Below, in pieces: positions 1-16,051 of a stretch of DNA of 16,051 bases. Position numbers and translations under genes: made by a program. The stretch's first letter is position 1, and every line of letters begins with the position of its first letter. Below the pieces are notes generated by a model. The model was not told the DNA's origin. It did not search any database and saw nothing but the letters and a program-made list of their open reading frames with translations. Where the stretch lies: IMG/VR virus record IMGVR_UViG_2563366861_000001, positions 1 through 16,051 of that record; one strand, given 5' to 3'. This stretch comes from a virus (taxonomy: Duplodnaviria; Heunggongvirae; Uroviricota; Caudoviricetes).

Positions 1-187
1 GGGAAAGCTGCACGTAATCAGCAAGCGATATACGCAGCGAATTGAGCGGCATAACCTGAATCTGAGGCAGCACCTGGCACGGCTGGGACGGAAGTCGCTG
101 TCGTTCTCAAAATCGGTGGAGCTGCATGACAAAGTCATCGGGCATTATCTGAACATAAAACACTATCAATAAGTTGGAGTCATTACC
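1..187 (+). mobile_element. IS1: IS1 insertion sequence, 3' portion (window starts inside the element); ends with the IS1 terminal inverted repeat ...CACTATCAATAAGTTGGAGTCATTACC at 161-187
   Basis: Bases 1-187 are the exact reverse complement of 15588-15774; encodes the InsB C-terminus and ends in the canonical IS1 terminal repeat (recognised from memory of IS1). Confidence 0.93.
2..172 (+). CDS. insB: IS1 transposase InsB, C-terminal fragment (5' end outside window)
   Basis: Translation of 2-172 gives [56 protein letters not shown] then TAA at 170-172, the same C-terminus as the 15603-15980 ORF on the minus strand. Confidence 0.9.
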
Positions 188-2266
188 GCCTCTCACGATA
201 TTACCTTTGTTGGTATTGTACAGACCGCTAAAGCGTCCGGTATGGAACGTTTCCCGCTGCCGTATGTGCTGACCAACTGCCATAACTCACTCTGCGCCGT
301 CGGCGGCACTATTAACGGTGATGACCATGTTTTTGGTTTATCGGCGGCCCAGCGTTATGGCGGTATTTTTGTGCCTCCGCATATTGCGGTCATCCATCAA
401 TATATGCGTGAGATGATGGCAGGCGGCGGCAAAATGATCCTCGGGTCAGACAGCCACACCCGTTACGGTGCATTAGGGACAATGGCAGTCGGTGAGGGCG
501 GCGGTGAGTTGGTAAAACAGCTGCTTAATGACACCTGGGATATCGACTATCCGGGCGTGGTTGCGGTGCATCTGACCGGAAAACCTGCGCCGTATGTGGG
601 GCCACAGGATGTGGCGCTGGCTATCATTGGCGCGGTGTTCAAAAACGGTTACGTCAAAAACAAAGTCATGGAGTTCGTTGGACCGGGCGTTAGCGCGCTC
701 TCTACCGATTTCCGTAACAGCGTTGACGTGATGACCACTGAAACGACCTGTTTAAGTTCTGTCTGGCAAACCGATGAAGAAGTCCATAACTGGCTGGCGC
801 TGCACGGTCGCGGCCAGGATTACTGCCAGCTTAACCCTCAACCGATGGCGTACTACGATGGCTGCATCAGCGTTGATTTAAGCGCCATCAAACCAATGAT
901 TGCGCTGCCGTTCCACCCGAGCAACGTGTATGAAATCGACACACTGAACCAGAACCTGACCGACATTCTGCGTGAGATTGAAATTGAGTCCGAACGCGTG
1001 GCGCACGGTAAAGCCAAACTCTCGCTGCTGGATAAAGTGGAAAATGGTCGCCTGAAAGTGCAGCAGGGGATTATCGCGGGCTGTTCTGGCGGTAACTACG
1101 AAAACGTCATCGCGGCGGCGAATGCACTGCGCGGTCAATCCTGTGGCAATGACACCTTCTCGCTGGCAGTTTACCCGTCATCACAGCCGGTGTTTATGGA
1201 TCTCGCCAAAAAAGGTGTGGTAGCAGATTTGATTGGCGCAGGCGCAATCATCAGAACCGCGTTCTGCGGCCCATGCTTTGGCGCGGGCGATACGCCAATC
1301 AACAACGGTTTGAGTATTCGCCACACCACGCGTAACTTCCCGAACCGCGAAGGCTCTAAGCCAGCTAATGGGCAGATGTCAGCGGTGGCGTTGATGGACG
1401 CTCGTTCTATCGCTGCGACTGCGGCAAACGGTGGCTATTTAACCTCTGCCAGCGAACTTGATTGCTGGGACAACGTGCCGGAGTACGCCTTCGATGTAAC
1501 GCCGTATAAAAACCGTGTTTATCAGGGCTTTGTGAAAGGGGCAACTCAGCAACCGCTGATTTACGGGCCGAACATTAAAGACTGGCCGGAATTGGGTGCG
1601 CTGACTGACAATATCGTCCTGAAAGTGTGCTCGAAGATCCTCGACGAAGTGACCACCACCGACGAACTGATTCCTTCCGGTGAAACCTCTTCTTATCGTT
1701 CAAATCCGATTGGTCTGGCGGAGTTTACCCTGTCTCGCCGCGATCCCGGTTATGTTAGCAGAAGTAAAGCGACTGCTGAGCTGGAAAATCAGCGTCTGGC
1801 GGGGAATGTCAGCGAGCTGACAGAGGTGTTTGCGCGCATTAAGCAGATTGCTGGTCAGGAGCATATTGATCCGCTGCAAACTGAAATTGGCAGCATGGTC
1901 TATGCGGTGAAACCAGGCGATGGTTCTGCGCGTGAACAGGCGGCGAGCTGCCAGCGTGTGATTGGCGGTCTGGCGAATATTGCCGAGGAGTACGCGACTA
2001 AACGCTATCGTTCTAACGTCATCAACTGGGGGATGTTACCGCTGCAAATGGCGGAAGTACCAACCTTTGAAGTGGGGGATTACATTTACATCCCTGGCAT
2101 TAAAGCGGCGCTGGATAATCCGGGTACGACGTTTAAAGGTTATGTGATCCATGAAGATGCGCCGGTAACGGAAATTACGCTCTATATGGAAAGTCTGACT
2201 GCTGAAGAGCGCGAGATTATCAAGGCGGGTAGTTTGATTAACTTCAATAAAAACCGTCAGATGTAA
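188..2266 (+). pseudogene. ybhJ: Aconitase-family protein YbhJ, 5'-truncated by the IS1 insertion (frame is open from the IS1 boundary; first ATG at 242)
   Basis: 674-aa ORF 242-2266 with aconitase-family character ([15 protein letters not shown]-like motifs) and recognised as YbhJ; the frame stays open upstream to the TAA at 170-172 inside IS1, so the native N-terminus (about 60 aa by my recollection of a ~753-aa YbhJ) is missing. Confidence 0.8.
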
Positions 2267-2282
2267 AAAGCGCCATGTGAAT

Positions 2283-2390
<108 letters not shown>

Positions 2391-2406
2391 AAATAGTTAA
2401 TTGCTC

Positions 2407-3690
2407 TTACTTCTTCGCCTCTGCAACCACTTTACTACCCACGCCGCGGTTATTGTATTCCCACATGCGGTTGTAGTTAGTGTCATTCAGATTGCGCTGT
2501 ATTTCGTCGTTATCATCTACGCTGCCGGTATTACCCGCAAACGGACGATTAGAGATCACCGCATCGGCCCACGGTTTAGCCGTGTTAAAACCTTCGTTGA
2601 TGGCGCTATCACGGATCACCACCTGACCGTTGGTATTGGCATCAACATCCAGCGAGCGGCCCAGTTGCGCCACACCATCACCGAAAGCATTGAAACGGCT
2701 GTTTACGGCGAGGAAACCGTAGTAAATGTTGGACAGCGTAGCCGGTGCAAACACATACGCTTCTTGCTGAGTACGTGAGTTCACCACGCGGAATTCGGTG
2801 TTATCGAACACCACTGCGCCGCGACCAGAAACGATATCCACATCCCCTTCAATGTAGCTGTTGGTCACCAGCGTACGCGGCTGACGATTTGTTTCCAGAC
2901 GGTTCTGCACACCGCTGTTGGTGACAAAGAAGGTGTTCTGACGACCGAGAATGTTAACGTTGTTAATCTGTACCTGGTCACCATCAGTACGCAGTGCCAC
3001 CGCCGGATGGTTACCTGCATCTACGCTATCGCCCAGCGTGTTTTCGATGGTCAGATTTTGCAGTTGCAGGCCATTGTTTTGTGACCAGAAGACCGCAGAG
3101 CAGAGAACACCGATACTGTCGCTGCGTTTGCTCTGGCAGCTATCGTACATATACCACGCTGGTTTACCTGGCATATATTTGCCGCGCGGGTTGACGTCGT
3201 GACGCCAGTCGGCAGGGCTCATGCCACCATCAAGGGAAAGCCCAATCTTCACATCAATCGGTTTTTCACCTGTACCGTACAGAGTAATTCCACCCGGAGC
3301 GGCAGGGACATATACCGTTCCCTGATACTCACCAGGCATCACGGCAATATACTGGCGCTTGTTGGTACGCTTGATAATTGCCGCATCTACCGCCGCCTGA
3401 ATCGTGGTATGCGTTACACCTTGAGTGCCCGCCGGGCCGACAACAAAGTCAGGTTGCGCAGGCAGGGTAATCGGGGAAGGATTCCACGCTGCAGCACCTG
3501 GTGTCAGGGATGCAAAATAGTGTTGAGCATCGAAATTCTGCGCTTCTTTTGCCGACAGAATCGGGCGAGAAGAGGTACCAGGCGCGGTTTGATCAGAAGG
3601 ACGTTGATCGGGCGGGGTTGAGCTACAGGCGGTCAGCGTCACGCCAAAAGCCAATGCCAGCGCCAGACGGGAAACTGAAAATGTGTTCAC
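2407..3690 (-). CDS. ybhC: YbhC, pectinesterase-family outer-membrane lipoprotein (putative acyl-CoA thioesterase); GTG start
   Basis: 427-aa ORF; N-terminus MNTFSVSRLALALAFGVTLTAC has a signal peptide and lipobox; recognised as E. coli YbhC, the gene immediately gal-proximal to attB-lambda. Confidence 0.9.
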   Translation of the reverse strand: MNTFSVSRLALALAFGVTLTACSSTPPDQRPSDQTAPGTSSRPILSAKEAQNFDAQHYFASLTPGAAAWNPSPITLPAQPDFVVGPAGTQGVTHTTIQAAVDAAIIKRTNKRQYIAVMPGEYQGTVYVPAAPGGITLYGTGEKPIDVKIGLSLDGGMSPADWRHDVNPRGKYMPGKPAWYMYDSCQSKRSDSIGVLCSAVFWSQNNGLQLQNLTIENTLGDSVDAGNHPAVALRTDGDQVQINNVNILGRQNTFFVTNSGVQNRLETNRQPRTLVTNSYIEGDVDIVSGRGAVVFDNTEFRVVNSRTQQEAYVFAPATLSNIYYGFLAVNSRFNAFGDGVAQLGRSLDVDANTNGQVVIRDSAINEGFNTAKPWADAVISNRPFAGNTGSVDDNDEIQRNLNDTNYNRMWEYNNRGVGSKVVAEAKK

Positions 3691-3730
3691 AGGTTGCTCC
3701 GGGCTATGAAATAGAAAAATGAATCCGTTG

Positions 3731-3850
3731 AAGCCTGCTTTTTTATACTAAGTTGGCATTATAAAAAAGCATTGCTTATCAATTTGTTGCAACGAACAGG
3801 TCACTATCAGTCAAAATAAAATCATTATTTGATTTCAATTTTGTCCCACT
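3731..3850. other. attL: attL of a lambda-type prophage: core GCTTTTTTATACTAA at 3737-3751 followed by the phage P' arm (IHF H' site region and Int arm-type sites P'1-P'3, e.g. AGGTCACTAT, CAGTCAAAAT, AAATCATTAT)
   Basis: Exact lambda att core and P' arm sequence (TTATACTAAGTTGGCATTATAAAAAAGCATTGCTTATCAATTTGTTGCAACGAACAGGTCACTATCAGTCAAAATAAAATCATTATTTGATTTCAATTTTGTCCCACTCC); bacterial arm on the ybhC side, phage arm running into int. Confidence 0.93.
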
Positions 3851-4895
3851 CCCTGCCTCTGTCATCACGATACTGTGATGCCATGGTGTCCGACTTATGC
3901 CCGAGAAGATGTTGAGCAAATTTATCGCTTATCTGCTTCTCATAGAGTCTTGCAGACAAACTGCGCAACTCGTGAAAGGTTGGCGGATCCCCTTCGAAGG
4001 AGAGACCTGATGCTTTTCGTGCGCGCATAAAATACCTTGATACTGTGCCGGATGAAAGCGGTTCACGACGAGTAGATGCAATTATGGTTTCTCCGCCAAG
4101 AATCTTTTTGCATTTATCAAGTGTTTCCTTCATTGATATCCCGAGAGCATCAACATGCAATGTTGTTGGGATGGCAATTTTTACGCCTGTTTTGCTTTGC
4201 TCGACATAAAGATATCCATCTACGATATCAGACCACTTCATTTCGCATAAATCACCAACTCGCTGCCCGGTAACAACAGCCAGTTCCATTGCAAGTCTAA
4301 GCCAACATGGTGATGATTCTGCTGCTTGATAAATTTTCAGGTATTCGTCAGCCGTAAGTCTTGATCTCCTTACCTCTGATTTTGCAGCGCGAGTGGCTGC
4401 GACCGGGTTTGTTGTTATATGGCCTTCAGCCATAGCCTCTCGGAATGCATCGCTCAGTGTTGATCTGATTAACTTGGCTGATGCCGCCTTTCCCTCGTCT
4501 ATGTATCCATTGAGCATTGCCGCAATTTCTTTTGTGGTGATGTCTTCAAGTGGAGCATCAGGCAGACCCCTCCTTATTGCTTTAATTTTGCTCATGTAAT
4601 TTATGAGTGTCTTCTGCTTGATTCCTCTGCTGGCCAGGATTTTTTCGTAGCGATCAAGCCATGAATGTAACGTAACGGAATTATCACTGTTGATTCTCGC
4701 TGTCAGAGGCTTGTGTTTGTGTCCTGAAAATAACTCAATGTTGGCCTGTATAGCTTCAGTGATTGCGATTCGCCTGTCTCGGCCTAATCCAAACTCTTTA
4801 CCCGTCCTTGGGTCCCTGTAGCAGTAATATCCATTGTTTCTTATATAAAGGTTAGGGGGTAAATCCCGGCGCTCATGACTTCGCCTTCTTCCCAT
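3825..4895 (-). CDS. int: Lambda-type integrase (tyrosine recombinase Int), apparently full length
   Basis: 356-aa ORF, near-identical to remembered phage lambda Int (MGRRRSHERRDLPPNLYIRNNGYYCYRDPRTGKEFGLGRDRR...REWDKIEIK); 3' end overlaps the P' arm as in lambda. Confidence 0.97.
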   Translation of the reverse strand: MGRRRSHERRDLPPNLYIRNNGYYCYRDPRTGKEFGLGRDRRIAITEAIQANIELFSGHKHKPLTARINSDNSVTLHSWLDRYEKILASRGIKQKTLINYMSKIKAIRRGLPDAPLEDITTKEIAAMLNGYIDEGKAASAKLIRSTLSDAFREAMAEGHITTNPVAATRAAKSEVRRSRLTADEYLKIYQAAESSPCWLRLAMELAVVTGQRVGDLCEMKWSDIVDGYLYVEQSKTGVKIAIPTTLHVDALGISMKETLDKCKKILGGETIIASTRREPLSSGTVSRYFMRARKASGLSFEGDPPTFHELRSLSARLYEKQISDKFAQHLLGHKSDTMASQYRDDRGREWDKIEIK

Positions 4896-5091
4896 TTCTG
4901 ATCCTCTTCAAAAGGCTACCTGTTACTGGTCGATTTAAGTCAACCTTTACCGCTGATTCGTGGAACAGATATTCTCTTCCATCCTTAACCGGAGGAGGGA
5001 ATATCCTGCATTCGCGCACCCATCGACGAACTGTTTCAAGGCTTCTTGGGCGTCGCTGGCGAGCGTTCCACTCCTGAAGTGTCAAGTACAT
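4873..5091 (-). CDS. xis: Lambda-type excisionase Xis; overlaps the int start as in lambda
   Basis: 72-aa ORF MYLTLQEWNARQRRPRSLETVRRWVRECRIFPPPVKDGREYLFHESAVKVDLNRPVTGSLLKRIRNGKKAKS matching remembered lambda Xis. Confidence 0.95.
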   Translation of the reverse strand: MYLTLQEWNARQRRPRSLETVRRWVRECRIFPPPVKDGREYLFHESAVKVDLNRPVTGSLLKRIRNGKKAKS

Positions 5092-5116
5092 CGCAAAGTC
5101 TCCGCAATTACACGCA

Positions 5117-5140
5117 AGAAAAAACCGCCATCAGGCGGCT
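5117..5140 (-). terminator. Candidate intrinsic terminator just after the orf55-like gene (5-bp GC stem plus G-U, 4-nt loop containing the stop codon, then a 6-U tract)
   Basis: Minus strand reads GCCGCC-TGAT-GGCGGT followed by TTTTTT (plus-strand A-run 5119-5124). Confidence 0.35.
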
Positions 5141-5298
5141 TGGTGTTCTTTCAGTTCTTCAATTCGAATATTGGTTATGTCTGCATGTGCTATCTGCGCC
5201 CATATCATCCAGTGGTCATAGCAGTCATTGATGTTCTCTGCTTCGATAACTCTGTTGAATGGTTCTCCATTCCATTCACCTGTGACTCGGAAGTGCAT
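5131..5298 (-). CDS. Small 55-aa protein upstream of xis (lambda orf55-like); below the ORF-track size cutoff
   Basis: Hand translation of the minus strand: MHFRVTGEWNGEPFNRVIEAENINDCYDHWMIWAQIAHADITNIRIEELKEHQAA, stop TGA; position matches the small ORF next to xis in lambda (identity from memory, unverified). Confidence 0.5.
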   Translation of the reverse strand: MHFRVTGEWNGEPFNRVIEAENINDCYDHWMIWAQIAHADITNIRIEELKEHQAA

Positions 5299-5307
5299 TT
5301 ATCATCT

Positions 5308-5336
5308 CCATAAAACAAAACTCGCCGTAGCGAGTT
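5308..5336 (-). terminator. Candidate intrinsic terminator downstream of the 142-aa moron gene
   Basis: Stem AACTCGC / GCGAGTT (5319-5325 / 5330-5336) with loop CGTA; on the minus strand it is followed by the U-rich run TTTTGTTTTA. Confidence 0.45.
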
Positions 5337-5380
5337 CAGATATAATTTCCACCAAAGGCAGTAGTTGCTGATGCTAAGAA

Positions 5381-5809
5381 TTATTCAATATCTATTCCTG
5401 TAATATCTTTTATCTTTTTCCTTGCAAAGCCTTTTGCTAGTGATTTTGAAACACTTATTAGTGTACTAATTCCCTCATCCTTAAAGTTTGTTTTTATAGT
5501 TTGCCAGACCTCCTTTTGACGCAAGTCAGCAATAAAATCATGCCCTCTTGCTGTCAACCTCAGTGGTACTTCGATCCAACTATATCCAACACCTTCCCCT
5601 AACTCGTTGGACATTATATGACCGAACCCAGGTTTTCCATCAACCCTGACTATTAATTCGTAGTCGCATAATAATCGCATATGGAAAATAAAATTTTGGT
5701 CATATCTATTAAAGCCATTATCCTCTAGTTCACTAAGCATCGTGTCAGGGCCATGAGTTTTTTCGAATGCGATAAGTAGATCTTTTAGATATTGCTGGTC
5801 TAATTTCAT
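5381..5809 (-). CDS. Hypothetical 142-aa protein (moron gene in the int-xis-proximal accessory hotspot); function unknown
   Basis: ATG-initiated ORF with a GGAGG Shine-Dalgarno 6 nt upstream, its own downstream terminator, and AT-rich composition distinct from the flanking lambda-type genes; no family recognised. Confidence 0.65.
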   Translation of the reverse strand: MKLDQQYLKDLLIAFEKTHGPDTMLSELEDNGFNRYDQNFIFHMRLLCDYELIVRVDGKPGFGHIMSNELGEGVGYSWIEVPLRLTARGHDFIADLRQKEVWQTIKTNFKDEGISTLISVSKSLAKGFARKKIKDITGIDIE

Positions 5810-6056
5810 TGCCGCCTCCGTGACATGTCACAGAGATTTATATCATTAATTTTGTTTCGTGCCAGCCTTTGGTCACCCAGCATTGTGAGTCACCATTACA
5901 CGGGCATGAATTAACAGGAACTCTCTCGCCGCACTTACCGCAACGTTTTCTGCTGATCGATTTTATACGCCAGCGCACACGTGCATCATCCTGGCGGCTC
6001 AGTAACGCGATGTACTCACCAAACTCGTAAGGCGCATGCCTGAAGCGGCGCGTGGC

Positions 6057-6176
6057 TCAGTTACGATCCAGCATTTCAATTTCCTGAGCATCAAGTACAA
6101 GCTCCAGCTTACGCATACCGGATGATGCTTGCTTGGCTCTCTGATCGACTTTGCGCTCTGCTGATGATTTAGCCAT
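6057..6176 (-). CDS. Hypothetical 39-aa protein (MAKSSAERKVDQRAKQASSGMRKLELVLDAQEIEMLDRN); same frame continues after a single TGA into a 72-codon zinc-ribbon-like segment (5838-6056)
   Basis: ATG at 6174-6176 preceded by an AGGA Shine-Dalgarno; stop TGA at 6057-6059; the downstream frame (…RKRCGKCGERVPVNSCPCNGDSQCW…) stays open to TAA at 5838-5840 with no ATG of its own. Confidence 0.35.
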   Translation of the reverse strand: MAKSSAERKVDQRAKQASSGMRKLELVLDAQEIEMLDRN

Positions 6177-6370
6177 TCTGCTTTTCCTGCATTAGGAGAA
6201 AGACAATCATGGCGGCGCGGATACTTCCGGTATCTTTTTACTCGATATTACCCTTCAATGGCACATACAAGAAGAGAGCCATCAACAGGAGTGAGTGAGG
6301 AATCGACAACCAGCAACGCTTAATTATCTATAGTGTCGTATTTGCTTCATAAAATATGGCGAATAACACA

Positions 6371-6404
6371 AAGCCCGCAGCAGCTCATTGTGCGGGCTTT
6401 TCTT
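6371..6404. terminator. Candidate bidirectional intrinsic terminator between convergent transcription units (9-bp stem AAGCCCGCA / TGCGGGCTT, T-run on the plus side)
   Basis: Perfect inverted repeat at 6371-6379 / 6391-6399 followed by TTTCTT; lies about 70 nt past the stop of the 204-aa minus-strand gene. Confidence 0.5.
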
Positions 6405-6469
6405 ATACATACTTCCTAGAGATAATTCTATGGAGGCATTAAATTAATACTGTCATTGGTAATATCATA

Positions 6470-7084
6470 TTATCTAAAAGTCTTTCCACTTTTAACGTCT
6501 AGGTATATTCTGTTCGACAACGTCATTCCTCCGCAATATGTGAAATAGATGTTTTTCCCCTTATTGCTTGATGCCATCCACCCTCCGATTTCCTTAAAGT
6601 CGCTTTCCGTGCAGACCCCTTCGTTTATTAACTTCCTAGCTGCCGAAGAAAACTCTTTTTTGTATATACGGTAGTCATCAGATCCTTTGATTAAAGTATC
6701 ATCTCCGCTCGCATTTTCAGCAGGATCTGATGGCCTTTCACTGCTAAGATCACTAAGTTTAACCCATTCTGAAAACTTGCCATTGACGATTCCGTTTTTT
6801 CTTGTGCAGGATTTATTACCTTCTTTAATATATTCGCTTTCCCCTCCCACACATGAGGCTGAATATGGCTCAGTTATACGAACCCATTCACCTTTTTTTT
6901 CTAGAAAATCTACGCCTTCCCTGAAAAATAGTTTCCCAGCCACTCCACATTTACTTGAAGGGCAGGTATGTCTTTCCGTTCGATCAACAACAACCCAAAG
7001 TCTTGATTCATTTTTTGCCATTGCCGATGGTATTTGAGATGAGACAATTAACGTAAGCCCTAAAATTAGTATTGATTTTTTCAT
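6470..7084 (-). CDS. Hypothetical secreted, cysteine-rich 204-aa protein (moron); function unknown
   Basis: ATG start with an AAGGA Shine-Dalgarno; N-terminus MKKSILILGLTLIVSSQIPSAMA is a typical Sec signal peptide; 7 Cys in the mature part; low GC; terminator downstream. Confidence 0.65.
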   Translation of the reverse strand: MKKSILILGLTLIVSSQIPSAMAKNESRLWVVVDRTERHTCPSSKCGVAGKLFFREGVDFLEKKGEWVRITEPYSASCVGGESEYIKEGNKSCTRKNGIVNGKFSEWVKLSDLSSERPSDPAENASGDDTLIKGSDDYRIYKKEFSSAARKLINEGVCTESDFKEIGGWMASSNKGKNIYFTYCGGMTLSNRIYLDVKSGKTFR

Positions 7085-7530
7085 TGTAATTTCCTTTTAC
7101 TTTTTACAAAGCGTTTAATCATGGCTGATTATCTTTAAGCGTAGTAACAGCCTTGTGCGAAACATGTTACCAAATCGCCATTTCAGTGTATCCGCAGTTA
7201 GGCTGCCACTTCAAGGATTCCTAATTACATGGTACGTAAGCGTAAAATCCCGTTGGTTGTCGGGTAATAACTCTGATCAAATCTCCCTTGTCTTTTGCTC
7301 TTACGTATGCAGCTCTTGTGTATTCAACCCAGGCCTCCAGTTCAGCAATACGCTTACTTCCATCCGAGATAACACCTTCTACTCACGCTGCTCGTTGAGT
7401 TTTGATTTTTGCTGTCTCCAGCTCAACACGCAGTTTCCTCACCGTTAGCGCAATATCCTCGTTCTCCTGGTCGCGGCGTTTGATGTACTGCTGGTTTCTT
7501 TCCCGTTCATCCAGCAGTGTCAGCACAATC

Positions 7531-7563
7531 GATGGTACGCTGCAGGATAATGTCCGGTGTCAT
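7531..7563 (-). pseudogene. exo: Remnant of lambda exo (first 10 codons MTPDIILQRT only), then unrelated sequence
   Basis: ATG overlaps the bet stop (ATGA) exactly as in lambda; reading diverges from remembered lambda Exo after codon 10 and hits a stop 8 codons later. Confidence 0.6.
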
Positions 7564-8009
7564 GCTGCCACCTTCTGCTCAGTGGCTTTCTGTTTCAGGA
7601 ATCCAAGAGCTTTCACTGCTTCGGCCTGTGTCAGTTCTGACGATGCGCGAATGTCGCGGCGAAATATCTGGGAACAGAGCGGCAATAAGTCGTCATCCCA
7701 TGTTTTGTCCAGGGCAATCAGCAGAGTGTTAATCTCCTGCATGGTTTCATCGTTAACCGGAGTAATGTCGCGTTCCGGCTGACGTTCTGCGGTGTATGCG
7801 GTATTTTCGACAATGCGCTCGGCTTCATCCTTGTCATAGATACCAGCAAATCCGAAGGCCAGACGGGCACACTGAATCATGGCTTTATGCCGTAACATCC
7901 GTTTGGGATGCGACTGCCACGGCCCCGTAATTTCTCTGCCTTCGCGGGTTTTGAATGGTTCGCGGCGGCATTCATCCATCCACTCGGTAACGCAGATCGG
8001 ATGATTACC
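7560..8009 (-). pseudogene. bet: Remnant of lambda bet (Red-beta): C-terminal ~150 codons only, 5' portion deleted
   Basis: Translation NHPICVTEWMDECRREPFKTREGREITGPWQSHPKRMLRHKAMIQCARLAFGFAGIYDKDEAERIVENTAYTAERQPERDITPVNDETMQEINTLLIALDKTWDDDLLPLCSQIFRRDIRASSELTQAEAVKALGFLKQKATEQKVAA matches the remembered C-terminus of lambda Bet; homology stops near 8009. Confidence 0.88.
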
Positions 8010-8165
8010 GGTTCGCTACCAGGGAAGAACGGGAAGGAAAGGTGAGCACGAATCTGATTTTCAAGGAGTGTCGCCAGAGTGCCGCGATGAAGCGGGTGTT
8101 GGCATTTTATCGCGGCAATTTTCAATAGACTATGTACATAAAAATATCATTTTTTTAATACATGT

Positions 8166-8357
8166 CTAATTATTGGACGAAATTGGTTTTTGCTTTGGTT
8201 TAGTTAGCCTAGCAATCAAGCCAGAGGCAATAATGATGATCCAAGCAATTTGATGCAATGCTACTCCAATATAAGAACCTTTATAGATAATAAAGGCATA
8301 GATCGCTAGAAACGAAATAAATATCCATAACGAAAGTTGATAAATTTTGGCGCGCAT
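8166..8357 (-). CDS. Possible small membrane protein (63 aa from ATG at 8357; two predicted transmembrane helices)
   Basis: Hydrophobic ORF MRAKIYQLSLWIFISFLAIYAFIIYKGSYIGVALHQIAWIIIIASGLIARLTKPKQ...; weak ribosome-binding site; the ORF-track start at 8372 is a TTG. Confidence 0.3.
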   Translation of the reverse strand: MRAKIYQLSLWIFISFLAIYAFIIYKGSYIGVALHQIAWIIIIASGLIARLTKPKQKPISSNN

Positions 8358-8613
8358 ATTTAATCCAATCAATCAGAAAGACGAGTAATCATAGAGGTAC
8401 TATCACCCGGGTAACTATTGCTATTATGAACGGATAGGATAGAGGCTTCAATAACATATGCATCAAGTATGATGGAATATGTAGGTGAAAATGACTTGTG
8501 TCAAATTTGTGGAAATGAGTACCATGTTTCTCTGAAATTGATGTCGTTAATGGCTAGTGATAGTGAACTTTTTTACTTTATAATTCCTTTGGTTATAACA
8601 ATAAGGTAAATTT

Positions 8614-9174
8614 ATGAAGAAGATAATATTATTAGCCATGATTATTGGTTCTTTAACAGGTTGCGCTAGTGTGCCACCATTGAATTTTTCAACACCTAAC
8701 GTGGGAGTTAGCCAGAAAAAAATAGATGCTGAAATTAAGTCATTAACGGTATCACTTGCTCGTCCAGATGAGCAGAAAGGGGATATCACTGCTGGTATGG
8801 AGGCTATAACTCCAATTTGGCGTGAATCTTTGCAGGAAGCACTCGACCGAATGACTATTTTTCGTGATAGTTCACCAAATACGGTTAGCTTAAATGTTAA
8901 AGTGTTGGCTCTTGACGTTCCTGCTTTTGGTGTTTCAATGACAACTAAAGCAATTGCAAGGTATGAAATAATCAACCGTGCGAATGGTGATATTATATAT
9001 ACGCAGGATATTGAGTCTACCGGTACTGTTCCAGCCAGTTACGCATTCTACGGTATTGTTCGAGCACGCGAATCTGTTAATCGCGCGGTGCAAAACAACA
9101 TAACGCAGTTCTTGCAAGCATTAGAAAGTGTTGATCTTTCTCGTCCAATGTTTCCTGTTAGGGTAGCTAAATGA
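8614..9174 (+). CDS. Putative lipoprotein, 186 aa (signal peptide plus lipobox LTGC); possibly YajG-like, function unknown
   Basis: MKKIILLAMIIGSLTGCAS… lipoprotein signal; ATG with upstream AAGG; stop overlaps the next gene's start (ATGA); low GC. Confidence 0.7.
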   Translation: MKKIILLAMIIGSLTGCASVPPLNFSTPNVGVSQKKIDAEIKSLTVSLARPDEQKGDITAGMEAITPIWRESLQEALDRMTIFRDSSPNTVSLNVKVLALDVPAFGVSMTTKAIARYEIINRANGDIIYTQDIESTGTVPASYAFYGIVRARESVNRAVQNNITQFLQALESVDLSRPMFPVRVAK

Positions 9175-9623
9175 AGCGATTATTCGTAATTGCTCCACTC
9201 TTAGTGTTGGTTGGATGCGCACAAAATATATCGCCAAATAGTTATTCTGTTGGCTCTGTGGGCATGGTTAATCGAACTATCGCTGGTACAGTTATTAGTG
9301 CTAGGGGGGTTGATATCAGTGGGACTTCCGCGTTAGGCGGGACTGCTGGGGCTGCCGTGGGGGCAACCGCTGGTTCTGCGCTTGGTGGGGGAGTTCGTTC
9401 TAATATCGTTGGTGCCGTTGGTGGTGCAGTCATTGGTGGTATTGCCGGGGCAGCAATCGAATCTTCAGCAACAAAACAAACAGGCATGGAATATGTTGTC
9501 GAAACTGAGAATGGGAATTTAATGACCATTGTTCAAGGCAAAGATCCGTTATTTACTCAAGGAAGTAAGGTCCTTGTTTTATACGGAAACCCTTCTCGCA
9601 TAATAACAGACCCGCGTCACTAA
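9171..9623 (+). CDS. SlyB-like outer-membrane lipoprotein with a glycine-zipper domain, 150 aa
   Basis: Lipobox LLVLVGCA, then the Gly-rich segment GTSALGGTAGAAVGATAGSALGGGVRSNIVGAVGGAVIGGIAGAAIE and a C-terminal region resembling SlyB/Pcp (family assignment from memory). Confidence 0.7.
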   Translation: MKRLFVIAPLLVLVGCAQNISPNSYSVGSVGMVNRTIAGTVISARGVDISGTSALGGTAGAAVGATAGSALGGGVRSNIVGAVGGAVIGGIAGAAIESSATKQTGMEYVVETENGNLMTIVQGKDPLFTQGSKVLVLYGNPSRIITDPRH

Positions 9624-9663
9624 CATACCTTTTGATTTTGTAAAATCAATTCGTAATAATAAA

Positions 9664-9700
9664 GTCATCGGAGCTTGAACAACTCCGGTGACTTCTGCGC
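9664..9700 (+). terminator. Candidate terminator after the lipoprotein operon (10-bp stem GTCATCGGAG / CTCCGGTGAC with one G-U, 9-nt loop, weak T-rich tail)
   Basis: Inverted repeat at 9664-9673 / 9683-9692 followed by TTCTGCGC. Confidence 0.3.
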
Positions 9701-9813
9701 TAAACGGGGACGTTTATGCGCACATACAATCCAAACTCTCTTCTCCCTTCACAGATGCAGAAATGCACCTGCGATTTTTTGCATCCAGCGTCTGACCTCT
9801 GCGGAGGTGAAGC

Positions 9814-10269
9814 GTGAACCTACCACAAGATGGCATCAAACTGCATCGCGGTAACTTCACCGCTATCGGCCAGCAGATCCAGCCTTATCTGGAGGACGGA
9901 AAATGCTTTCGCATGGTGCTTAAACCGTGGCGTGAGAAACGCAGTCTTTCCCAGAATGCACTCAGCCACATGTGGTACAGCGAAATCAGTGAATACCTCA
10001 TCAGCAGGGGGAAATCGTTCGCTACCGCAGCATGGGTAAAAGATGCTCTCAAACACACATACCTCGGTTATGAAACCAAGGACCTGGTTGATGTCGTAAC
10101 CGGCGAAATCACTACTATCCAGTCGTTACGCCATACCTCCGATCTTGATACCGGAGAGATGTATATCTTCCTGTGTAAGGTTGAAGCCTGGGCGGTGAAT
10201 ATTGGCTGCCACCTGACTATTCCGCAGAGCTGCGAGTTCCAGCAGCTCCGCGACAAACAGGAGGCGTAA
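9814..10269 (+). CDS. ybcN: Nin-region protein YbcN-like, 151 aa, GTG start
   Basis: [58 protein letters not shown]… recognised as the DLP12-type YbcN preceding ninE; GGAGG Shine-Dalgarno upstream. Confidence 0.8.
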
Positions 10270-10439
10270 TGGCTACACCGCTTATTCGTGTCATGAACGG
10301 ACACATCTACAGAGTACCAAATCGTCGTAAGCGTAAACCGGAGCTGAAGCCTTCCGAAATACCAACACTGCTCGGATATACCGCCAGCCTGGTTGATAAA
10401 AAATGGTTGCGACTGGCAGCAAGGAGGAGTCATGGCTGA
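10269..10439 (+). CDS. ninE: NinE, 56 aa
   Basis: Hand translation [56 protein letters not shown]; start overlaps the ybcN stop (TAATG); conserved lambdoid nin-region order. Confidence 0.8.
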   Translation: MATPLIRVMNGHIYRVPNRRKRKPELKPSEIPTLLGYTASLVDKKWLRLAARRSHG

Positions 10440-10722
10440 TTTGAGAAAAGCAGCGCGTGGTCGGGAATGCCAGGTAAGAATCCCTGGCGTATGTAATGGC
10501 AACCCTGAAACGTCTGTACTGGCACATATCCGGCTGACTGGATTGTGCGGCACCGGTACGAAACCGCCAGACCTGATTGCCACCATTGCATGTTCTGCCT
10601 GCCACGACGAAATCGACCGCCGCACACATTTTGTCGATGCTGCATATGCAAAAGAATGCGCGCTGGAAGGTATGGCGAGAACACAGGTTATCTGGCTGAA
10701 AGAGGGGGTTATTAAGGCGTGA
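10432..10722 (+). CDS. ybcO: YbcO-like (DUF1364) putative nuclease, 96 aa from the ATG at 10432
   Basis: [64 protein letters not shown]…; AGGAGG Shine-Dalgarno just upstream; overlaps the ninE stop. Confidence 0.85.
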
Positions 10723-11081
10723 ATACCTACAGCATCACATTACCCTGGCCTCCGAGCAATAATCGCTATTACCGCCATAATCGCGGGCGCACACACATCA
10801 GCGCAGAAGGGCAGGCATACCGCGATAACGTCACCCGAATCATTAAAAACGCAATGCTGGATATCGGCCTGGCTATGCCAGTGAAAATCCGTATTGAGTG
10901 CCACATGCCGGATCGCCGTCGCCGTGACCTGGATAATCTGCAAAAAGCCGCTTTTGACGCACTCACCAAAGCAGGTTTCTGGCTGGATGATGCTCAGGTC
11001 GTTGATTACCGCGTTGTGAAGATGCCTGTTACCAAAGGTGGGAGGCTGGAACTGACCATCACCGAAATGGGGAATGAATGA
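10719..11081 (+). CDS. rusA: RusA Holliday-junction resolvase, 120 aa
   Basis: [37 protein letters not shown]…[12 protein letters not shown] matches remembered E. coli RusA almost residue for residue. Confidence 0.93.
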
Positions 11082-11218
11082 TGTTTGAGTTTAATATGGC
11101 AGAACTTCTTCGCCACCGCTGGATGCGCCTGCGCTTATATCGTTTCCCCAGTTCTGTTTTGACCGATTACCGAATACTGAGGAATTACGCCAAAACCCTG
11201 ACAGGAGCAGGAGTATGA
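11078..11218 (+). CDS. ylcG: Small 46-aa protein YlcG-like, between rusA and Q
   Basis: Hand translation [46 protein letters not shown]; overlaps the rusA stop; position matches ylcG of DLP12 (sequence identity from memory, unverified). Confidence 0.55.
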
Positions 11219-11303
11219 AGTCAGAGATAACAATCAACTAATACTGTTTTATTGATTTTTGCTTGTAATTGGCGTTCTGGTCTGATTTTTGTGGAGTAAG
11301 TTG

Positions 11304-11687
11304 ATGCGTGATATTCAGATGGTTCTTGAGCGTTGGGGAGCGTGGGCGGCTAATAATCATGAAGATGTGACCTGGTCGTCCATTGCCGCCGGTTTTAAGG
11401 GATTAATTACTTCAAAAGTAAAATCTCGCCCGCAATGTTGTGACGATGACGCGATGATCATTTGCGGGTGCATGGCCCGTCTGAAAAAGAACAACAGCGA
11501 TTTGCACGATTTATTAGTAGATTATTATGTAGTCGGTATGACATTCATGTCACTGGCAGGTAAGCATTGCTGCTCTGATGGTTATATCGGGAAAAGGTTA
11601 CAGAAGGCTGAGGGTATAATTGAAGGGATGTTAATGGCATTAGATATCCGGTTAGAGATGGATATCGTTGTTAATAACTCTAATTAA
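11304..11687 (+). CDS. Late-gene antiterminator Q (phage 82/DLP12 QuuD-type), 127 aa from the ATG at 11304
   Basis: [60 protein letters not shown]… with Cys-rich zinc-binding motifs; sits after the nin genes and before the lysis cassette. Confidence 0.85.
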
Positions 11688-11702
11688 TATGCCAATTGTT
11701 TA

Positions 11703-11738
11703 CTAAAAATTATTAAAAATGGGGCGTTGAGACGCCCC
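11703..11738 (-). terminator. Candidate intrinsic terminator for the porin gene (stem GGGGCG / CGCCCC, then ATTTTTAATAATTTTT on the minus strand)
   Basis: Inverted repeat 11721-11726 / 11733-11738 with a U-rich run on the minus-strand 3' side. Confidence 0.4.
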
Positions 11739-11826
11739 CAAAAATAAAGGGTAATATATAACAGAAGGTTTATATAGTTAGAAGCAAGGTTGTGCTCCTA
11801 AAGGAAGTGGCTTGAGGGAGCCACTT

Positions 11827-11866
11827 ATATGTTGGGGAGGCAAAGCCTCCCGCAACATATCTTTTA
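11827..11866 (+). terminator. Candidate hairpin terminator downstream of Q (stem ATATGTTGGGGAGGC / GCCTCCCGCAACATAT followed by CTTTT)
   Basis: Long imperfect inverted repeat 11827-11860 followed by a short T-run; lies between convergent Q and the porin gene. Confidence 0.35.
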
Positions 11867-11875
11867 GTAATCAAA

Positions 11876-12958
11876 TTAGAACTGGTAAACCATACCTACA
11901 GCAACGATATCATCGGTAGCAACGCCAGATGCTTTCGTGAAATCGCTCTTATCAATCAGGTTGATTTTGTAATCAACAAAAGTGGACATATTTTTGTTGA
12001 AGTAATAGGTTGCACCTACATCAATATATTCAACCAGGTCCTGATCACCCCACGCACCCAAGTCTTTTCCTTTAGATTGCAGGTAAGCAACGGACGGACG
12101 CAGACCGAAGTCGAACTGATATTGTGCAACTACTTCGAAGTTTTGTGCTTTGTTGGCAATATGGTTATTACCAAAAACAGTCATGTTCTGGGTTTCAGAA
12201 TAGGTGGTAGCCAGATAGATGTTGTTCGCATCATATTTCAGACCAGCTGCCCATACTTCAGCATTTTGACCAGATGCATTCAGGCTGTTGTTACCGTAGA
12301 TAACCTGATTATTAGTGCGGTCAGATTTAGCATAGGTTGCACCTACACCGAATCCTTCATACTCATAAGTAGTGGAGAAACCGAAACCATCACCATTAGC
12401 TTCAGTTACGTCAGTGCGGTCATTTTTACCCTGATACTGAGCAGCAAAGTTCAGACCATCAACCAGACCAAAGAAGTCATTGTTACGATAAGTTGCAACA
12501 CCTGTGGTGCGACCAGTCATGAATACATCTGTTTGGGTCCAGGTATCGCCACCGAATTCTGGCAGAACGTCGGTCCATGCACCAATATCGTATGCTACAC
12601 CGTAGTTACGGCCATAATCGATGGAGCCGTAGTCACCGAATTTCAGGCCAGCGAAGGCAAGACGGGTTTTATCTTTGGAGGAACCTTGAGATTCAGCGCG
12701 GTTGCCTTTGAATTCATATTCCCACTGACCGAAACCAGTCAGTTGATCGTTGATTTGGGTTTCACCTTTGAAGCCAAGACGGGCATAAGTAGTATCACCA
12801 TCATCTGCATCATTAGAGGAGAAGTAGTGCTTAGCATTAACTTTCCCGTACAGATCCAGCTTGTTACTGTCTTTATTATAAATTTCAGCTGCCTGAGCAG
12901 ACATCGCCATCAGTACTGATGCAGCTACAGCAGAAATTGCCACTGTTAATTTTTTCAT
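11876..12958 (-). CDS. nmpC: Phage-borne OmpC-family general porin (NmpC/Lc type), 360-aa precursor, apparently full length; start taken at [11 protein letters not shown]…
   Basis: Signal peptide [23 protein letters not shown], mature N-terminus [17 protein letters not shown]…, C-terminal …VAVGMVYQF with terminal Phe typical of porins; located between Q and the holin as in DLP12 and PA-2. Confidence 0.9.
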
Positions 12959-13384
12959 CGTGAGCCCTTTTTTTGAACTATTATTAAAAAATGATGTCAC
13001 TGCGCGATAAATATTCATCTAATCAATGTGATTATTTCAAGATGTAAGTTTTGGTTTCTCATTTGATTTGTGAAGTAGATCTCTATTTTTATCTGAACTT
13101 TTTCTATCGAATCCTATTCATGGCTCTTGGCTGAATAAAAATAAATCTATTAGCCAATTTATATTAATGGCTGTTATTTATAAGTGCTCTATAATTTGAA
13201 GATTCAATTTAAACCAGCTAAAAATAACGCTGGAAATTATTTGTTGGTTATTTGTTGAGATTTGCTTATGTATTTGTAGTGGTGTTTTCAATACTCGGTA
13301 GCATTCTCGCAAATATCATTTAGTGGTTTACGTACGTAAAAAATTGGTTATGCTGTTAAGAGTGGTTACTTCGTCACACAGCTT

Positions 13385-13416
13385 AAACCCGCCGTCGAGC
13401 GGGTTTTTCCATTTTT
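13385..13416 (+). terminator. Intrinsic terminator upstream of the lysis cassette, candidate tR' (8-bp stem AAACCCGC / GCGGGTTT, loop CGTCGA, then TTTTCCATTTTTT)
   Basis: Perfect inverted repeat 13385-13392 / 13399-13406 followed by a T-rich tract on the plus strand, about 130 nt before the holin start. Confidence 0.55.
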
Positions 13417-13545
13417 TGAGTCTCGATATTAGCTGATAACCCAATACCTGAGTTATTCACTGACTCCGAGTCTGTTAAGTTTCTGCTTTTTTGCGATACG
13501 TTGTATTCCCTCAATTTACACCCGCTTTGTCTGCGAGGTGGGGTT

Positions 13546-13761
13546 ATGAAATCCATGGATAAGTTAACAACGGGTGTCGCCTATGGCACCTCAGCAGGTA
13601 GTGCCGGTTACTGGTTTTTACAGCTGCTCGATAAAGTCACGCCCTCACAGTGGGCAGCAATAGGTGTGCTGGGTAGCCTGGTATTTGGCCTGCTGACGTA
13701 CCTGACAAACCTTTATTTCAAGATTAAAGAAGATAAGCGCAAGGCTGCGAGAGGTGAATAA
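13546..13761 (+). CDS. S: Class II holin/pinholin of the phage 21 S family, 71 aa, with dual-start motif MKSM (antiholin/holin)
   Basis: [71 protein letters not shown], close to remembered S21; Shine-Dalgarno GAGGTGGGG; stop overlaps the endolysin start (TAATG). Confidence 0.9.
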
Positions 13762-14258
13762 TGCCTCCATCATTACGAAAAGCCGTTGCTGCTGCTATTG
13801 GTGGCGGAGCAATTGCTATAGCATCAGTGTTAATTACTGGCCCAAGTGGTAACGATGGTCTGGAAGGTGTCAGCTACGTACCATACAAAGATATCGTTGG
13901 CGTATGGACTGTATGTCACGGACACACCGGAAAAGACATCATGCTCGGTAAAACGTATACCAAAGCAGAATGCAAAGCACTCTTGAATAAAGACCTTGCC
14001 ACTGTCGCCAGACAAATTAACCCGTACATCAAAGTCGATATACCGGAAACAACGCGCGGCGCTCTTTACTCATTCGTTTACAACGTGGGTGCTGGCAATT
14101 TCAGAACATCGACGCTTCTTCGCAAAATAAACCAGGGCGATATCAAAGGCGCATGTGATCAGCTACGTCGCTGGACATATGCTGGCGGTAAGCAATGGAA
14201 AGGTCTCATGACTCGTCGTGAGATTGAGCGTGAAATCTGTTTGTGGGGTCAGCAATGA
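13761..14258 (+). CDS. R: SAR endolysin (phage 21 R-type lysozyme), 165 aa
   Basis: N-terminal Gly/Ala-rich signal-arrest-release helix ([20 protein letters not shown]) followed by the T4-lysozyme-like catalytic region [23 protein letters not shown]. Confidence 0.92.
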
Positions 14259-14716
14259 ACAGAGTAACCGCGATTATCTCCGCTCTGGTTATCTGCATCA
14301 TCGTCTACCTGTCATGGGCTGTTAATCATTACCGTGATAACGCCATTACCTACAAAGCCCAGCGCGACAAAAATGCCAGAGAACTGAAGCTGGCGAACGC
14401 GGCAATTACTGACATGCAGATGCGTCAGCGTGATGTTGCTGCGCTCGATGCAAAATACACGAAGGAGTTAGCTGATGCGAAAGCTGAAAATGATGCTCTG
14501 CGTGATGATGTTGCCGCTGGTCGTCGTCGGTTGCACATCAAAGCAGTCTGTCAGTCAGTGCGTGAAGCCACCACCGCCTCCGGCGTGGATAATGCAGCCT
14601 CCCCCCGACTGGCAGACACCGCTGAACGGGATTATTTCACCCTCAGAGAGAGGCTGATCACTATGCAAAAACAACTGGAAGGAACCCAGAAGTATATTAA
14701 TGAGCAGTGCAGATAG
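14255..14716 (+). CDS. Rz: Rz inner-membrane spanin subunit, 153 aa from the ATG at 14255
   Basis: [68 protein letters not shown]…; N-terminal TM helix then coiled coil; overlaps the R stop (ATGA). Confidence 0.9.
14475..14657 (+). CDS. Rz1: Rz1 outer-membrane lipoprotein spanin subunit, embedded in the +1 frame of Rz
   Basis: [24 protein letters not shown]… lipobox plus proline-rich tract ([15 protein letters not shown]); classic Rz/Rz1 embedded-gene architecture. Confidence 0.85.
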
Positions 14717-14747
14717 AGTTGCCCATATCGATGGGCAACTCATGCAA

Positions 14748-15041
14748 TTATTGTGAGCAATACACACGCGCTTCCAGCGGAGTATAAATGCCTAAAGTAA
14801 TAAAACCGAGCAATCCATTTACGAATGTTTGCTGGGTTTCTGTTTTAACAACATTTTCTGCGCCGCCACAAATTTTGGCTGCATCGACAGTTTTCTTCTG
14901 CCCAATTCCAGAAACGAAGAAATGATGGGTGATGGTTTCCTTTGGTGCTACTGCTGCCGGTTTGTTTTGAACAGTAAACGTCTGTTGAGCACATCCTGTA
15001 ATAAGCAGGGCCAGCGCAGTAGCGAGTAGCATTTTTTTCAT
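14748..15041 (-). CDS. bor: Bor lipoprotein (serum-resistance lysogenic-conversion factor), 97 aa
   Basis: MKKMLLATALALLITGCAQQTFTVQNKPAAVAPKETITHHFFVSGIGQKKTVDAAKICGGAENVVKTETQQTFVNGLLGFITLGIYTPLEARVYCSQ; recognised as lambda Bor / DLP12 BorD. Confidence 0.9.
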   Translation of the reverse strand: MKKMLLATALALLITGCAQQTFTVQNKPAAVAPKETITHHFFVSGIGQKKTVDAAKICGGAENVVKTETQQTFVNGLLGFITLGIYTPLEARVYCSQ

Positions 15042-15331
15042 GGTGTTATTCCCGATGCTTTTTGAAGTTCGCAGAATCGTATGTGTAGAAAATTAAACAA
15101 ACCCTAAACAATGAGTTGAAATTTCATATTGTTAATATTTATTAATGTATGTCAGGTGCGATGAATCGTCATTGTATTCCCGGATTAACTATGTCCACAG
15201 CCCTGACGGGGAACTTCTCTGCGGGAGTGTCCGGGAATAATTAAAAACGATGCACACAGGGTTTAGCGCGTACACGTATTGCATTATGCCAACGCCCCGG
15301 TGCTGACACGGAAGAAACCGGACGTTATGAT

Positions 15332-15587
15332 TTAGCGTGGAAAGATTTGTGTAGTGTTCTGAATGCTCTCAGTAAATAGTAATGAATTATCAAAGGTATA
15401 GTAATATCTTTTATGTTCATGGATATTTGTAACCCATCGGAAAACTCCTGCTTTAGCAAGATTTTCCCTGTATTGCTGAAATGTGATTTCTCTTGATTTC
15501 AACCTATCATAGGACGTTTCTATAAGATGCGTGTTTCTTGAGAATTTAACATTTACAACCTTTTTAAGTCCTTTTATTAACACGGTG
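15332..15587 (-). pseudogene. ybcV: YbcV-like (DUF1398) gene, 5'-truncated by the right-hand IS1
   Basis: The reading frame …[83 protein letters not shown] runs open into the IS1 terminal repeat; the ORF-track start at 15601 is a TTG inside IS1. Family name recalled from the DLP12 gene order, with moderate certainty. Confidence 0.55.
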
Positions 15588-16051
15588 GGTAATGACTCCA
15601 ACTTATTGATAGTGTTTTATGTTCAGATAATGCCCGATGACTTTGTCATGCAGCTCCACCGATTTTGAGAACGACAGCGACTTCCGTCCCAGCCGTGCCA
15701 GGTGCTGCCTCAGATTCAGGTTATGCCGCTCAATTCGCTGCGTATATCGCTTGCTGATTACGTGCAGCTTTCCCTTCAGGCGGGATTCATACAGCGGCCA
15801 GCCATCCGTCATCCATATCACCACGTCAAAGGGTGACAGCAGGCTCATAAGACGCCCCAGCGTCGCCATAGTGCGTTCACCGAATACGTGCGCAACAACC
15901 GTCTTCCGGAGCCTGTCATACGCGTAAAACAGCCAGCGCTGGCGCGATTTAGCCCCGACGTATCCCCACTGTTCGTCCATTTCCGCGCAGACGATGACGT
16001 CACTGCCCGGCTGTATGCGCGAGGTTACCGACTGCGGCCTGAGTTTTTTAA
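15588..16051 (-). mobile_element. IS1: IS1 insertion sequence, partial (runs off the window end), inverted relative to the IS1 at 1-187
   Basis: Begins with the IS1 terminal repeat GGTAATGACTCCAACTTATTGATAGTG at 15588; 15588-15774 is the exact reverse complement of 1-187. Confidence 0.95.
15603..16049 (-). CDS. insB: IS1 transposase InsB reading frame (5' end outside window)
   Basis: …[68 protein letters not shown]…HYLNIKHYQ, recognised as IS1 InsB. Confidence 0.92.

Follow-up and report, generated by a model that had tools for sequence, protein, structure and literature searches.

Constitutive transcription from the late promoter PR' with an early stop, antitermination by Q, and lysis through pinholin, signal-anchor-release (SAR) endolysin and spanin steps are well-established behaviours of lambdoid phages and of phage 21. 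A lysis operon of this kind resides in the DLP12 prophage of Escherichia coli K-12, in the gene order quuD-nmpC-essD-rrrD/ybcS-rzpD/rzoD-borD. The DLP12 operon is under the control of a Q-type antiterminator, RpoE and Hha (PMC7918800, refs 19, 27, 28; PMC2408971), and it affects peptidoglycan release, biofilm and vesicle formation (PMC7918800; PMC2408971). Here, a lysis cassette and the DNA preceding it were analyzed in a stretch of 16,051 nucleotides (nt) from a virus of the Caudoviricetes (IMG/VR record IMGVR_UViG_2563366861_000001, positions 1 to 16,051), which is referred to as a whole as the window. The region under study very likely represents the lysis operon, with its late-gene control unit, of a DLP12/434/PA-2-type defective lambdoid prophage.

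The window has the same gene order as DLP12, and the QuuD and EssD proteins of the two are identical, while RrrD, RzpD and RzoD differ by two, six and one residues, respectively. DLP12 is located at argU, whereas the prophage in the window occupies the lambda site, as marked by ybhC and a lambda-type int. Two further differences concern the DNA around essD. The nmpC gene is whole in the window but is interrupted by IS5 in K-12, as it also is in the sequenced 434B isolate, and a 16-bp segment of the essD leader (CTGCTTTTTTGCGATA, 13484-13499) is missing from the K-12 prophage. The live phages 434 and PA-2 (lc porin) carry the whole Q-porin-S-R-Rz-bor module at 95-99% identity, but they are complete and inducible and have their immunity regions.

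Phage 21 resembles the window in its dual-start holin and in the logic of a short terminated leader that comes straight after PR'. In phage 21, this leader belongs to a unit of PR', Q-binding element (QBE), sigma-dependent pause element (SDPE) and terminator; its PR' abuts Q, and tRNA genes follow its terminator. The Shiga-toxin (Stx) phages 933W, Sakai Sp5/Sp15 and H-19B encode Q proteins 78-81% identical to QuuD and share with the window the -35 element, the spacer, the block that follows the promoter and the first hairpin. In contrast to the window, their Q gene and PR' overlap at the 3' end of the gene, and a terminator at +258 gives rise to the small RNA StxS, beyond which lie tRNAs and stx. 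Between Q and PR' the window carries the porin insert, and it lacks the second terminator, the StxS 3' segment and the toxin genes; a StxS-like small RNA was rejected as a candidate on the absence of the first two.

An intact phage 21-type lysis cassette

The original prediction had described a complete cassette with a dual-start pinholin, a SAR endolysin and embedded Rz/Rz1, and this description was supported by Pfam matches (Table 1) and a base-by-base check. The essD product is a class II holin whose N-terminus, MKSMDK, offers two starts, with Met1 giving a 71-aa (amino acid) form and Met4, at 13555, a 68-aa form; the records of phages 434 and 21 annotate S as an antiholin/holin pair (S71/S68 in 434). 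The endolysin belongs to the lysozyme family and has a Gly/Ala-rich SAR domain at its N-terminus, and Rz contains an embedded Rz1. The translational overlaps proposed earlier were likewise found, the S stop and R start sharing TAATG (13759-13763) and the R stop and Rz start sharing ATGA (14255-14258).

At the protein level, EssD matched both phage 434 S and K-12 EssD with 100% identity. The holin, endolysin, Rz and Rz1 were 86%, 99%, 97% and 100% identical to their phage 21 counterparts. These values corresponded to 10 conservative differences between EssD and S21, two substitutions between RrrD and R21 (V40I and T98M, with the N-terminal 39 residues and the SAR region identical) and four substitutions between RzpD and phage 21 Rz, whereas RzoD was identical to phage 21 Rz1. 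Alignment of S and R, which had been suggested as a way to find inactivating mutations, revealed none; the lysis genes carry no such mutations and all four open reading frames (ORFs) are intact. The cassette is a complete phage 21-type set of pinholin, SAR endolysin and spanins, for which a lytic function is predicted from the identity of EssD in K-12 DLP12 and live phage 434 and from the DLP12 literature. Upstream of the holin gene, both the minimum free energy (MFE) and centroid folds contained a hairpin over the essD ribosome-binding site (Table 1), which may set the antiholin-to-holin ratio.

Table 1 Coordinates of the late-control and lysis features in the window (CDS, coding sequence)
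Feature	Position	Strand	Description
quuD	11304-11687	+	Q-type late antiterminator, 127 aa; PF06530, E 4e-53
Porin insert (moron) between Q and PR'	11664-13320	-	~1.65 kb; boundaries approximate
nmpC/lc	CDS 11876-12958	-	PF00267 porin, E 4e-153; 360 aa in RefSeq
Sigma-E-type promoter candidate	12974-13007	+	TGAACTA, 16 bp, TCACT; reads towards essD; start ~13007
PR' homologue	13327-13362	+	-35 TTTACG 13327-13332, 16-bp spacer, -10 TATGCT 13349-13354; predicted start G13362 (or A13361)
Block GTTAAGAGTGGTTAC	13355-13377	+	Invariant but for the second base, which is A in Sakai and H-19B and T in the remaining four loci
Predicted promoter-proximal intrinsic terminator	13385-13419	+	8-bp stem, 6-nt loop, U-tract
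Predicted RNA hairpin over essD Shine-Dalgarno GAGGTGGGG	13518-13544	+	MFE and centroid folds of 13410-13548
essD	13546-13761	+	S21-type pinholin/antiholin; PF04971 (P21 holin), E 2e-35
rrrD	13761-14258	+	SAR endolysin, 165 aa; PF00959 lysozyme, E 8e-46
rzpD	14255-14716	+	Rz i-spanin, 153 aa; PF03245, E 3e-54
rzoD	14475-14657	+	Rz1 o-spanin lipoprotein, 60 aa, +1 frame inside rzpD; PF06085, E 3e-20

The probable late promoter is homologous to PR' of Shiga-toxin phages

A sensitive DNA search with the region upstream of essD retrieved 356 phage records. Stx phages matched only positions 13326-13408 of the window, with 77-78% identity (blastn), and in these phages the matching segment runs from the 3' end of Q into the adjoining downstream DNA. 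The alignment showed that the window and the Stx phages have in common the -35 hexamer, a 16-bp spacer containing CGTAAAAA, the block TAAGAGTGGTTAC and the hairpin; the -10 hexamer is TATGCT in the window versus TATCAT in Sakai. Differential RNA sequencing (dRNA-seq) and Term-seq in Sakai have placed the StxS 3' end 258 nt from the PR' start and an RNase E cut between GU and AUU at +173 (PMC7547250). When the Sakai start was placed at the G of AAGAG/TGG, both distances were fitted exactly, and the equivalent base in the window is G13362, near coordinate 577,230 in K-12. The element in the window is homologous to an experimentally mapped PR'. QuuD-like Q genes (401 phage records) and the promoter element (the 356 records above) showed the same spread over phage names, and both PR' and the hairpin are 100% identical in K-12.

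The window was further compared with Sakai, H-19B, SfII, EH2246 and 1720a-02; across these six loci, the Q proteins show 47-100% identity to QuuD. The sequence TAAGAGTGGTTAC was invariant in all six. The first 16 transcribed bases (13362-13377) contain an inverted repeat, GTGG(T)..N6..(G)YCAC, which is kept in all six lineages. The window has a T in this repeat where the others have a C, the G-U pair is retained, and a hairpin was predicted in every case. The repeat could be an RNA hairpin or a site for a dimeric protein, and in PA-2 the authors labelled it CRP-like. The block with this repeat (13355-13377) is a candidate Q-loading/pause element. Another candidate Q-binding or pause feature is the conserved CGNAAAAA in the spacer, beside the near-invariant positions 13355-13369.

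A strong hairpin terminator had been proposed at 13385, and a predicted terminator was indeed found there by pattern scan, folding and conservation. The scan identified the arms and loop AAACCCGC/CGTCGA/GCGGGTTT at 13385-13406, followed by TTCCATTTTTT, and the centroid fold had a free energy of -12 kcal/mol. The hairpin and its U-tract were kept in the five other loci, with changes in the loop and in the stem register. The cassette lies downstream of the Q gene and, in keeping with the original prediction, the late promoter and the predicted terminator are inside the nmpC-essD intergenic region (12959-13545). In the 1986 record of PA-2 (J02580, ~1770), the 3' arm of the hairpin reads GCTGG in place of GCGGG. 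This G-to-T change removes the predicted terminator and represents either an error in sequencing or a terminator-down variant that occurs naturally.

With these elements, RNA polymerase would start constitutively at ~13362 and mostly halt at the hairpin, leaving an RNA of ~50-58 nt. QuuD, when present, would load on the polymerase near the start and allow readthrough into the lysis genes. The pinholin EssD68, opposed by EssD71, would depolarise the membrane, and depolarisation would release and activate the membrane-tethered SAR endolysin RrrD, after which the Rz/Rz1 spanins would finally disrupt the outer membrane. A second, sigma-E-type promoter (~13007) would also read towards the hairpin terminator.

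Several observations weigh against this scheme. The 60-nt leader did not fold significantly better than shuffled sequences (z -1.4). In Sakai, PR' transcripts reach a second terminator at +258 (PMC7547250), and because some of them end there, the first hairpin must be leaky at least in that phage; the window contains no equivalent second terminator. The candidate -10-like hexamer after the start, TACTTC, is weak, without the key final T in the window. Furthermore, the Q protein of phage ev087 is 85% identical to QuuD by protein alignment, yet ev087 does not have this PR' block.

The locus of this phage, Lambda_ev087 (370-520), diverges at the same Q codon (~120) and continues into a different minus-strand insert, with a blc lipocalin gene, and without TAAGAGTGGTTAC. 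Directly after its Q there is a terminator like the second (+258) terminator of Sakai. This pattern points to the 3' end of Q as a likely hot spot of recombination, and perhaps to another target for this Q.

The PR' regions of phages 82 and 21, which the original prediction had named for alignment, proved to be unsuitable models. Q82 belongs to PF06323 (PMC9388147), whereas QuuD belongs to PF06530. Although PF06530 is called the Q21 family in the structural paper (PMC9388147), the similarity of QuuD to the solved Q21 is remote (E 8e-7), and the Q21 binding element ATTGAGCA/AATGAGCA is absent.

A porin insert separates quuD from the late promoter

QuuD was 100% identical to K-12 QuuD and to the Q protein of phage PhiR34_1, and 78% and 81% identical to the Q proteins of Sakai Sp5 (933W-type) and H-19B, respectively. 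Homology to the Stx phages ends at about codon 120 of Q (11663 in the window) and restarts near 13320. The insert between these points holds the 3' hairpins of nmpC, including a minus-strand terminator at 11721-11738. The annotated nmpC start, an ATG at 12958, precedes a signal peptide, and a 380-aa ORF from 13018 is an over-extension.

A late-promoter role had been proposed for the AT-rich region 13019-13385. Its AT-richness was confirmed, with 29% GC over 12959-13325 versus 46% in the whole window, but the left edge at 13019 was an artefact of the longest nmpC ORF and most of the region has no part in the late promoter. The DNA from 12959 to ~13320 was found only in porin-carrying phages; it belongs to the porin insert and lies outside the late-promoter unit. 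The PA-2 record annotates CRP sites within this AT-rich DNA upstream of nmpC.

Instead of following Q directly, PR' is separated from it by 1.64 kb, measured from the quuD stop (11687) to the -35 element (13327), with nmpC in between. The same Q-porin-S-R-Rz module occurs in the live phages 434, PA-2, ev243, mEp332 and the PhiR phages, and because live phages share this layout, it is compatible with a working late switch. An independent case is the Shigella phage SfII, which has a QuuD-family Q (42% identical) and carries the same promoter-hairpin element just upstream of S, a different holin. Two minus-strand genes begin 3 bp past the Q stop of SfII, so PR' cannot follow Q there. The SfII layout therefore suggests that PR' travels with the lysis genes and that inserts accumulate between Q and PR'.

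The prophage has lost its immunity region

Positions 11200-15100 of the window (3.9 kb) were 100% identical to many complete E. coli chromosomes, on which RefSeq labels the genes quuD, porin ('ompC'; nmpC in K-12), essD, rrrD, rzpD and bor. The lambdoid prophage in the window is defective and occupies the attachment site of lambda. In strain A14, the element is flanked by ybhC and ybhB/bioA, which corresponds to the lambda attachment site, and its left end encodes a lambda-type integrase with an Arm-DNA-binding domain, then an excisionase. In the window, ybhJ and ybhC, then a lambda-type int (Arm-binding domain) and xis, were found at 1-3690 and 3825-5091, rather than argU as for DLP12. The ybcN-to-ybcV part is 95-97% identical to DLP12 despite the lambda-site location.

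A near-identical strain matched positions 2290-15587 at 99.98-99.99% identity, with a 439-bp indel at 7536, and its annotation has recT fused to ren. In A14, a truncated recT adjoins a truncated ren with nothing in between, and the terminase and tail genes are truncated as well. At ~8006 in the window, the truncated recT (minus strand) is joined directly to the truncated ren (plus strand), a deletion scar. The recT-ren fusion deleted the whole immunity, early and replication region (N, cI, cro, O, P and PR), and the elements of lambdoid immunity control (cI/cro, PR and N) were not found in the window. The claim that no cI-like repressor is present was upheld: no repressor-like or helix-turn-helix Pfam match was obtained among the window ORFs, and no cI-type repressor is annotated anywhere in the prophage of the near-identical strain.

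It had been concluded from the missing repressor that lysis would depend only on Q levels. This was a weak inference, as PR, N, cro, O and P were deleted along with cI, and PR' is never a target of cI but is constitutively active in lysogens (PMC7547250). With cI, N, PR and the replication genes lost, the usual induction cascade does not supply Q. Expression would therefore depend on weak local nin-Q transcription, on host inputs, or on a compatible Q from another prophage. The only upstream promoter candidate for the supply of Q was a pattern match at 8557-8584.

That promoter-like site (GTGATA-16-TATAAT) lies ahead of two ORFs and the nin genes, and could feed the nin genes and quuD. The two plus-strand ORFs (8614-9623) occupy the O/P position; one encodes 186 aa with no Pfam match, and the other 150 aa with weak glycine-zipper matches, named a YajG-family lipoprotein in some records. 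At the other end, the shared sequence of the window stops at 15587, and an IS1 element (15588-16051) has inserted there into ybcV (DUF1398). The exact IS1/ybcV junction was absent from the complete E. coli genomes in the collection. An Rfam scan of the whole window gave no match.

Host control and other explanations

The DLP12 literature bears on the window because K-12 is 98% identical across the intergenic region and fully identical at PR' and the hairpin. A 'DLP12 promoter region, -121 to +650' fragment has been described with numbering from Rueggeberg 2015 (PMC7918800), and its primers map to 12886-13672 in the window. This mapping puts +1 at ~13007, 6 nt past the sigma-E-like -10 element, from which we infer a sigma-E-type start at that position. 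Loss of the DLP12 operon leads to more vesicles, and the promoter fragment responds to pH, osmolarity and temperature (PMC7918800). Hha has also been tied to the DLP12 lysis genes (PMC2408971).

These reports raise the possibility that the cassette is an envelope operon under host control, transcribed from the sigma-E promoter at ~13007 and governed by Hha/H-NS-type effects on AT-rich DNA, and serving cell-wall turnover, vesicles and biofilm, with Q minor and barely made. The agreement of the sigma-E-type promoter with the published fragment numbering, the vesicle and promoter-response data (PMC7918800), the Hha link (PMC2408971) and the deletion of PR and N all speak for such a role. However, without Q, transcripts from 13007 must still get past the 13385 hairpin, Q has also been reported to control the cassette (ref 27 of PMC7918800), and QuuD is a fully intact protein that does not differ from its counterpart in live phages. 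Host control is a possible but rather unlikely explanation, and it complements a Q-responsive late unit rather than excluding it. A suicide or altruistic lysis module, as suggested in the original prediction, would not be new, since a host-used module has already been published for DLP12 (PMC7918800, PMC2408971).

A related proposal, which is tentative and on balance doubtful, is that the porin insert split Q from PR' and brought a sigma-E promoter directly upstream of PR', along with 370 bp of AT-rich DNA that bears annotated CRP-like sites and is possibly silenced by H-NS/Hha. The outcome would be a domesticated lysis/vesicle module triggered by envelope stress. The Q of a Shiga-toxin prophage (78-81% identical) or of another lambdoid prophage in the same host could also trigger such a module in trans. 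Firing in trans by an Stx-phage Q is conceivable because both share the same PR' block.

It is improbable that the cassette is a neutral remnant that has not yet decayed and has no present function. The prophage is heavily deleted and ybcV is disrupted by IS1 at 15588, which speaks for this view. However, five ORFs and the promoter-terminator unit are intact and identical or near-identical to those of live phages, PR' and the cassette were present at a coverage of at least 80% in 2303 of the 5426 complete E. coli genomes, and phenotypes have been published for DLP12 deletions.

A still weaker case can be made for a PR' located right after quuD (11688-11875), as in lambda and phage 21, from which polymerase would read antisense through nmpC, leaving 13327-13419 as a relic. 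PR' does abut the Q gene in lambda, phage 21, Sakai, H-19B, EH2246 and 1720a-02, and in ev087, whose Q is related, the DNA directly downstream of Q contains a promoter-like site as well as a good terminator. However, the promoter scan gave no sigma-70-like site on the plus strand of 11688-11875, and inspection by eye together with the scan yielded only the minus-strand terminator, which is the sole strong hairpin there, and weak candidates with 19-bp spacers. This segment is also unlike any Stx-phage PR', whose homologue sits at 13327, and in SfII there is no room after Q for PR'. This location is very improbable. The original assignment of the late promoter to the TATAAT at 13190-13195 (+), a perfect -10 hexamer ~195 nt upstream of the terminator that would give a lambda-like terminated leader of ~200 nt, resembling lambda 6S RNA in length, is extremely improbable: it is a chance hexamer (8 copies in the window versus 11.3 expected) that has no acceptable -35 partner, was omitted by the promoter scan, and lies in DNA missing from the late-promoter regions of SfII and the Stx phages, which share the terminator and a related Q.

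Implications

The cassette is intact, ordinary and common, and it has already been characterized in E. coli. The analysis yields three useful corrections. PR' for this type of Q is the element at 13327-13362 beside the terminator, not the TATAAT, and a porin gene with its own regulatory DNA parts Q from its target promoter. The missing cI alone does not make the cassette dangerous, because the normal route of Q synthesis is gone too. While the importance of the locus is otherwise limited to annotation, possible cross-activation of the cassette by Q proteins from other prophages in the same host is the only point that perhaps deserves attention.

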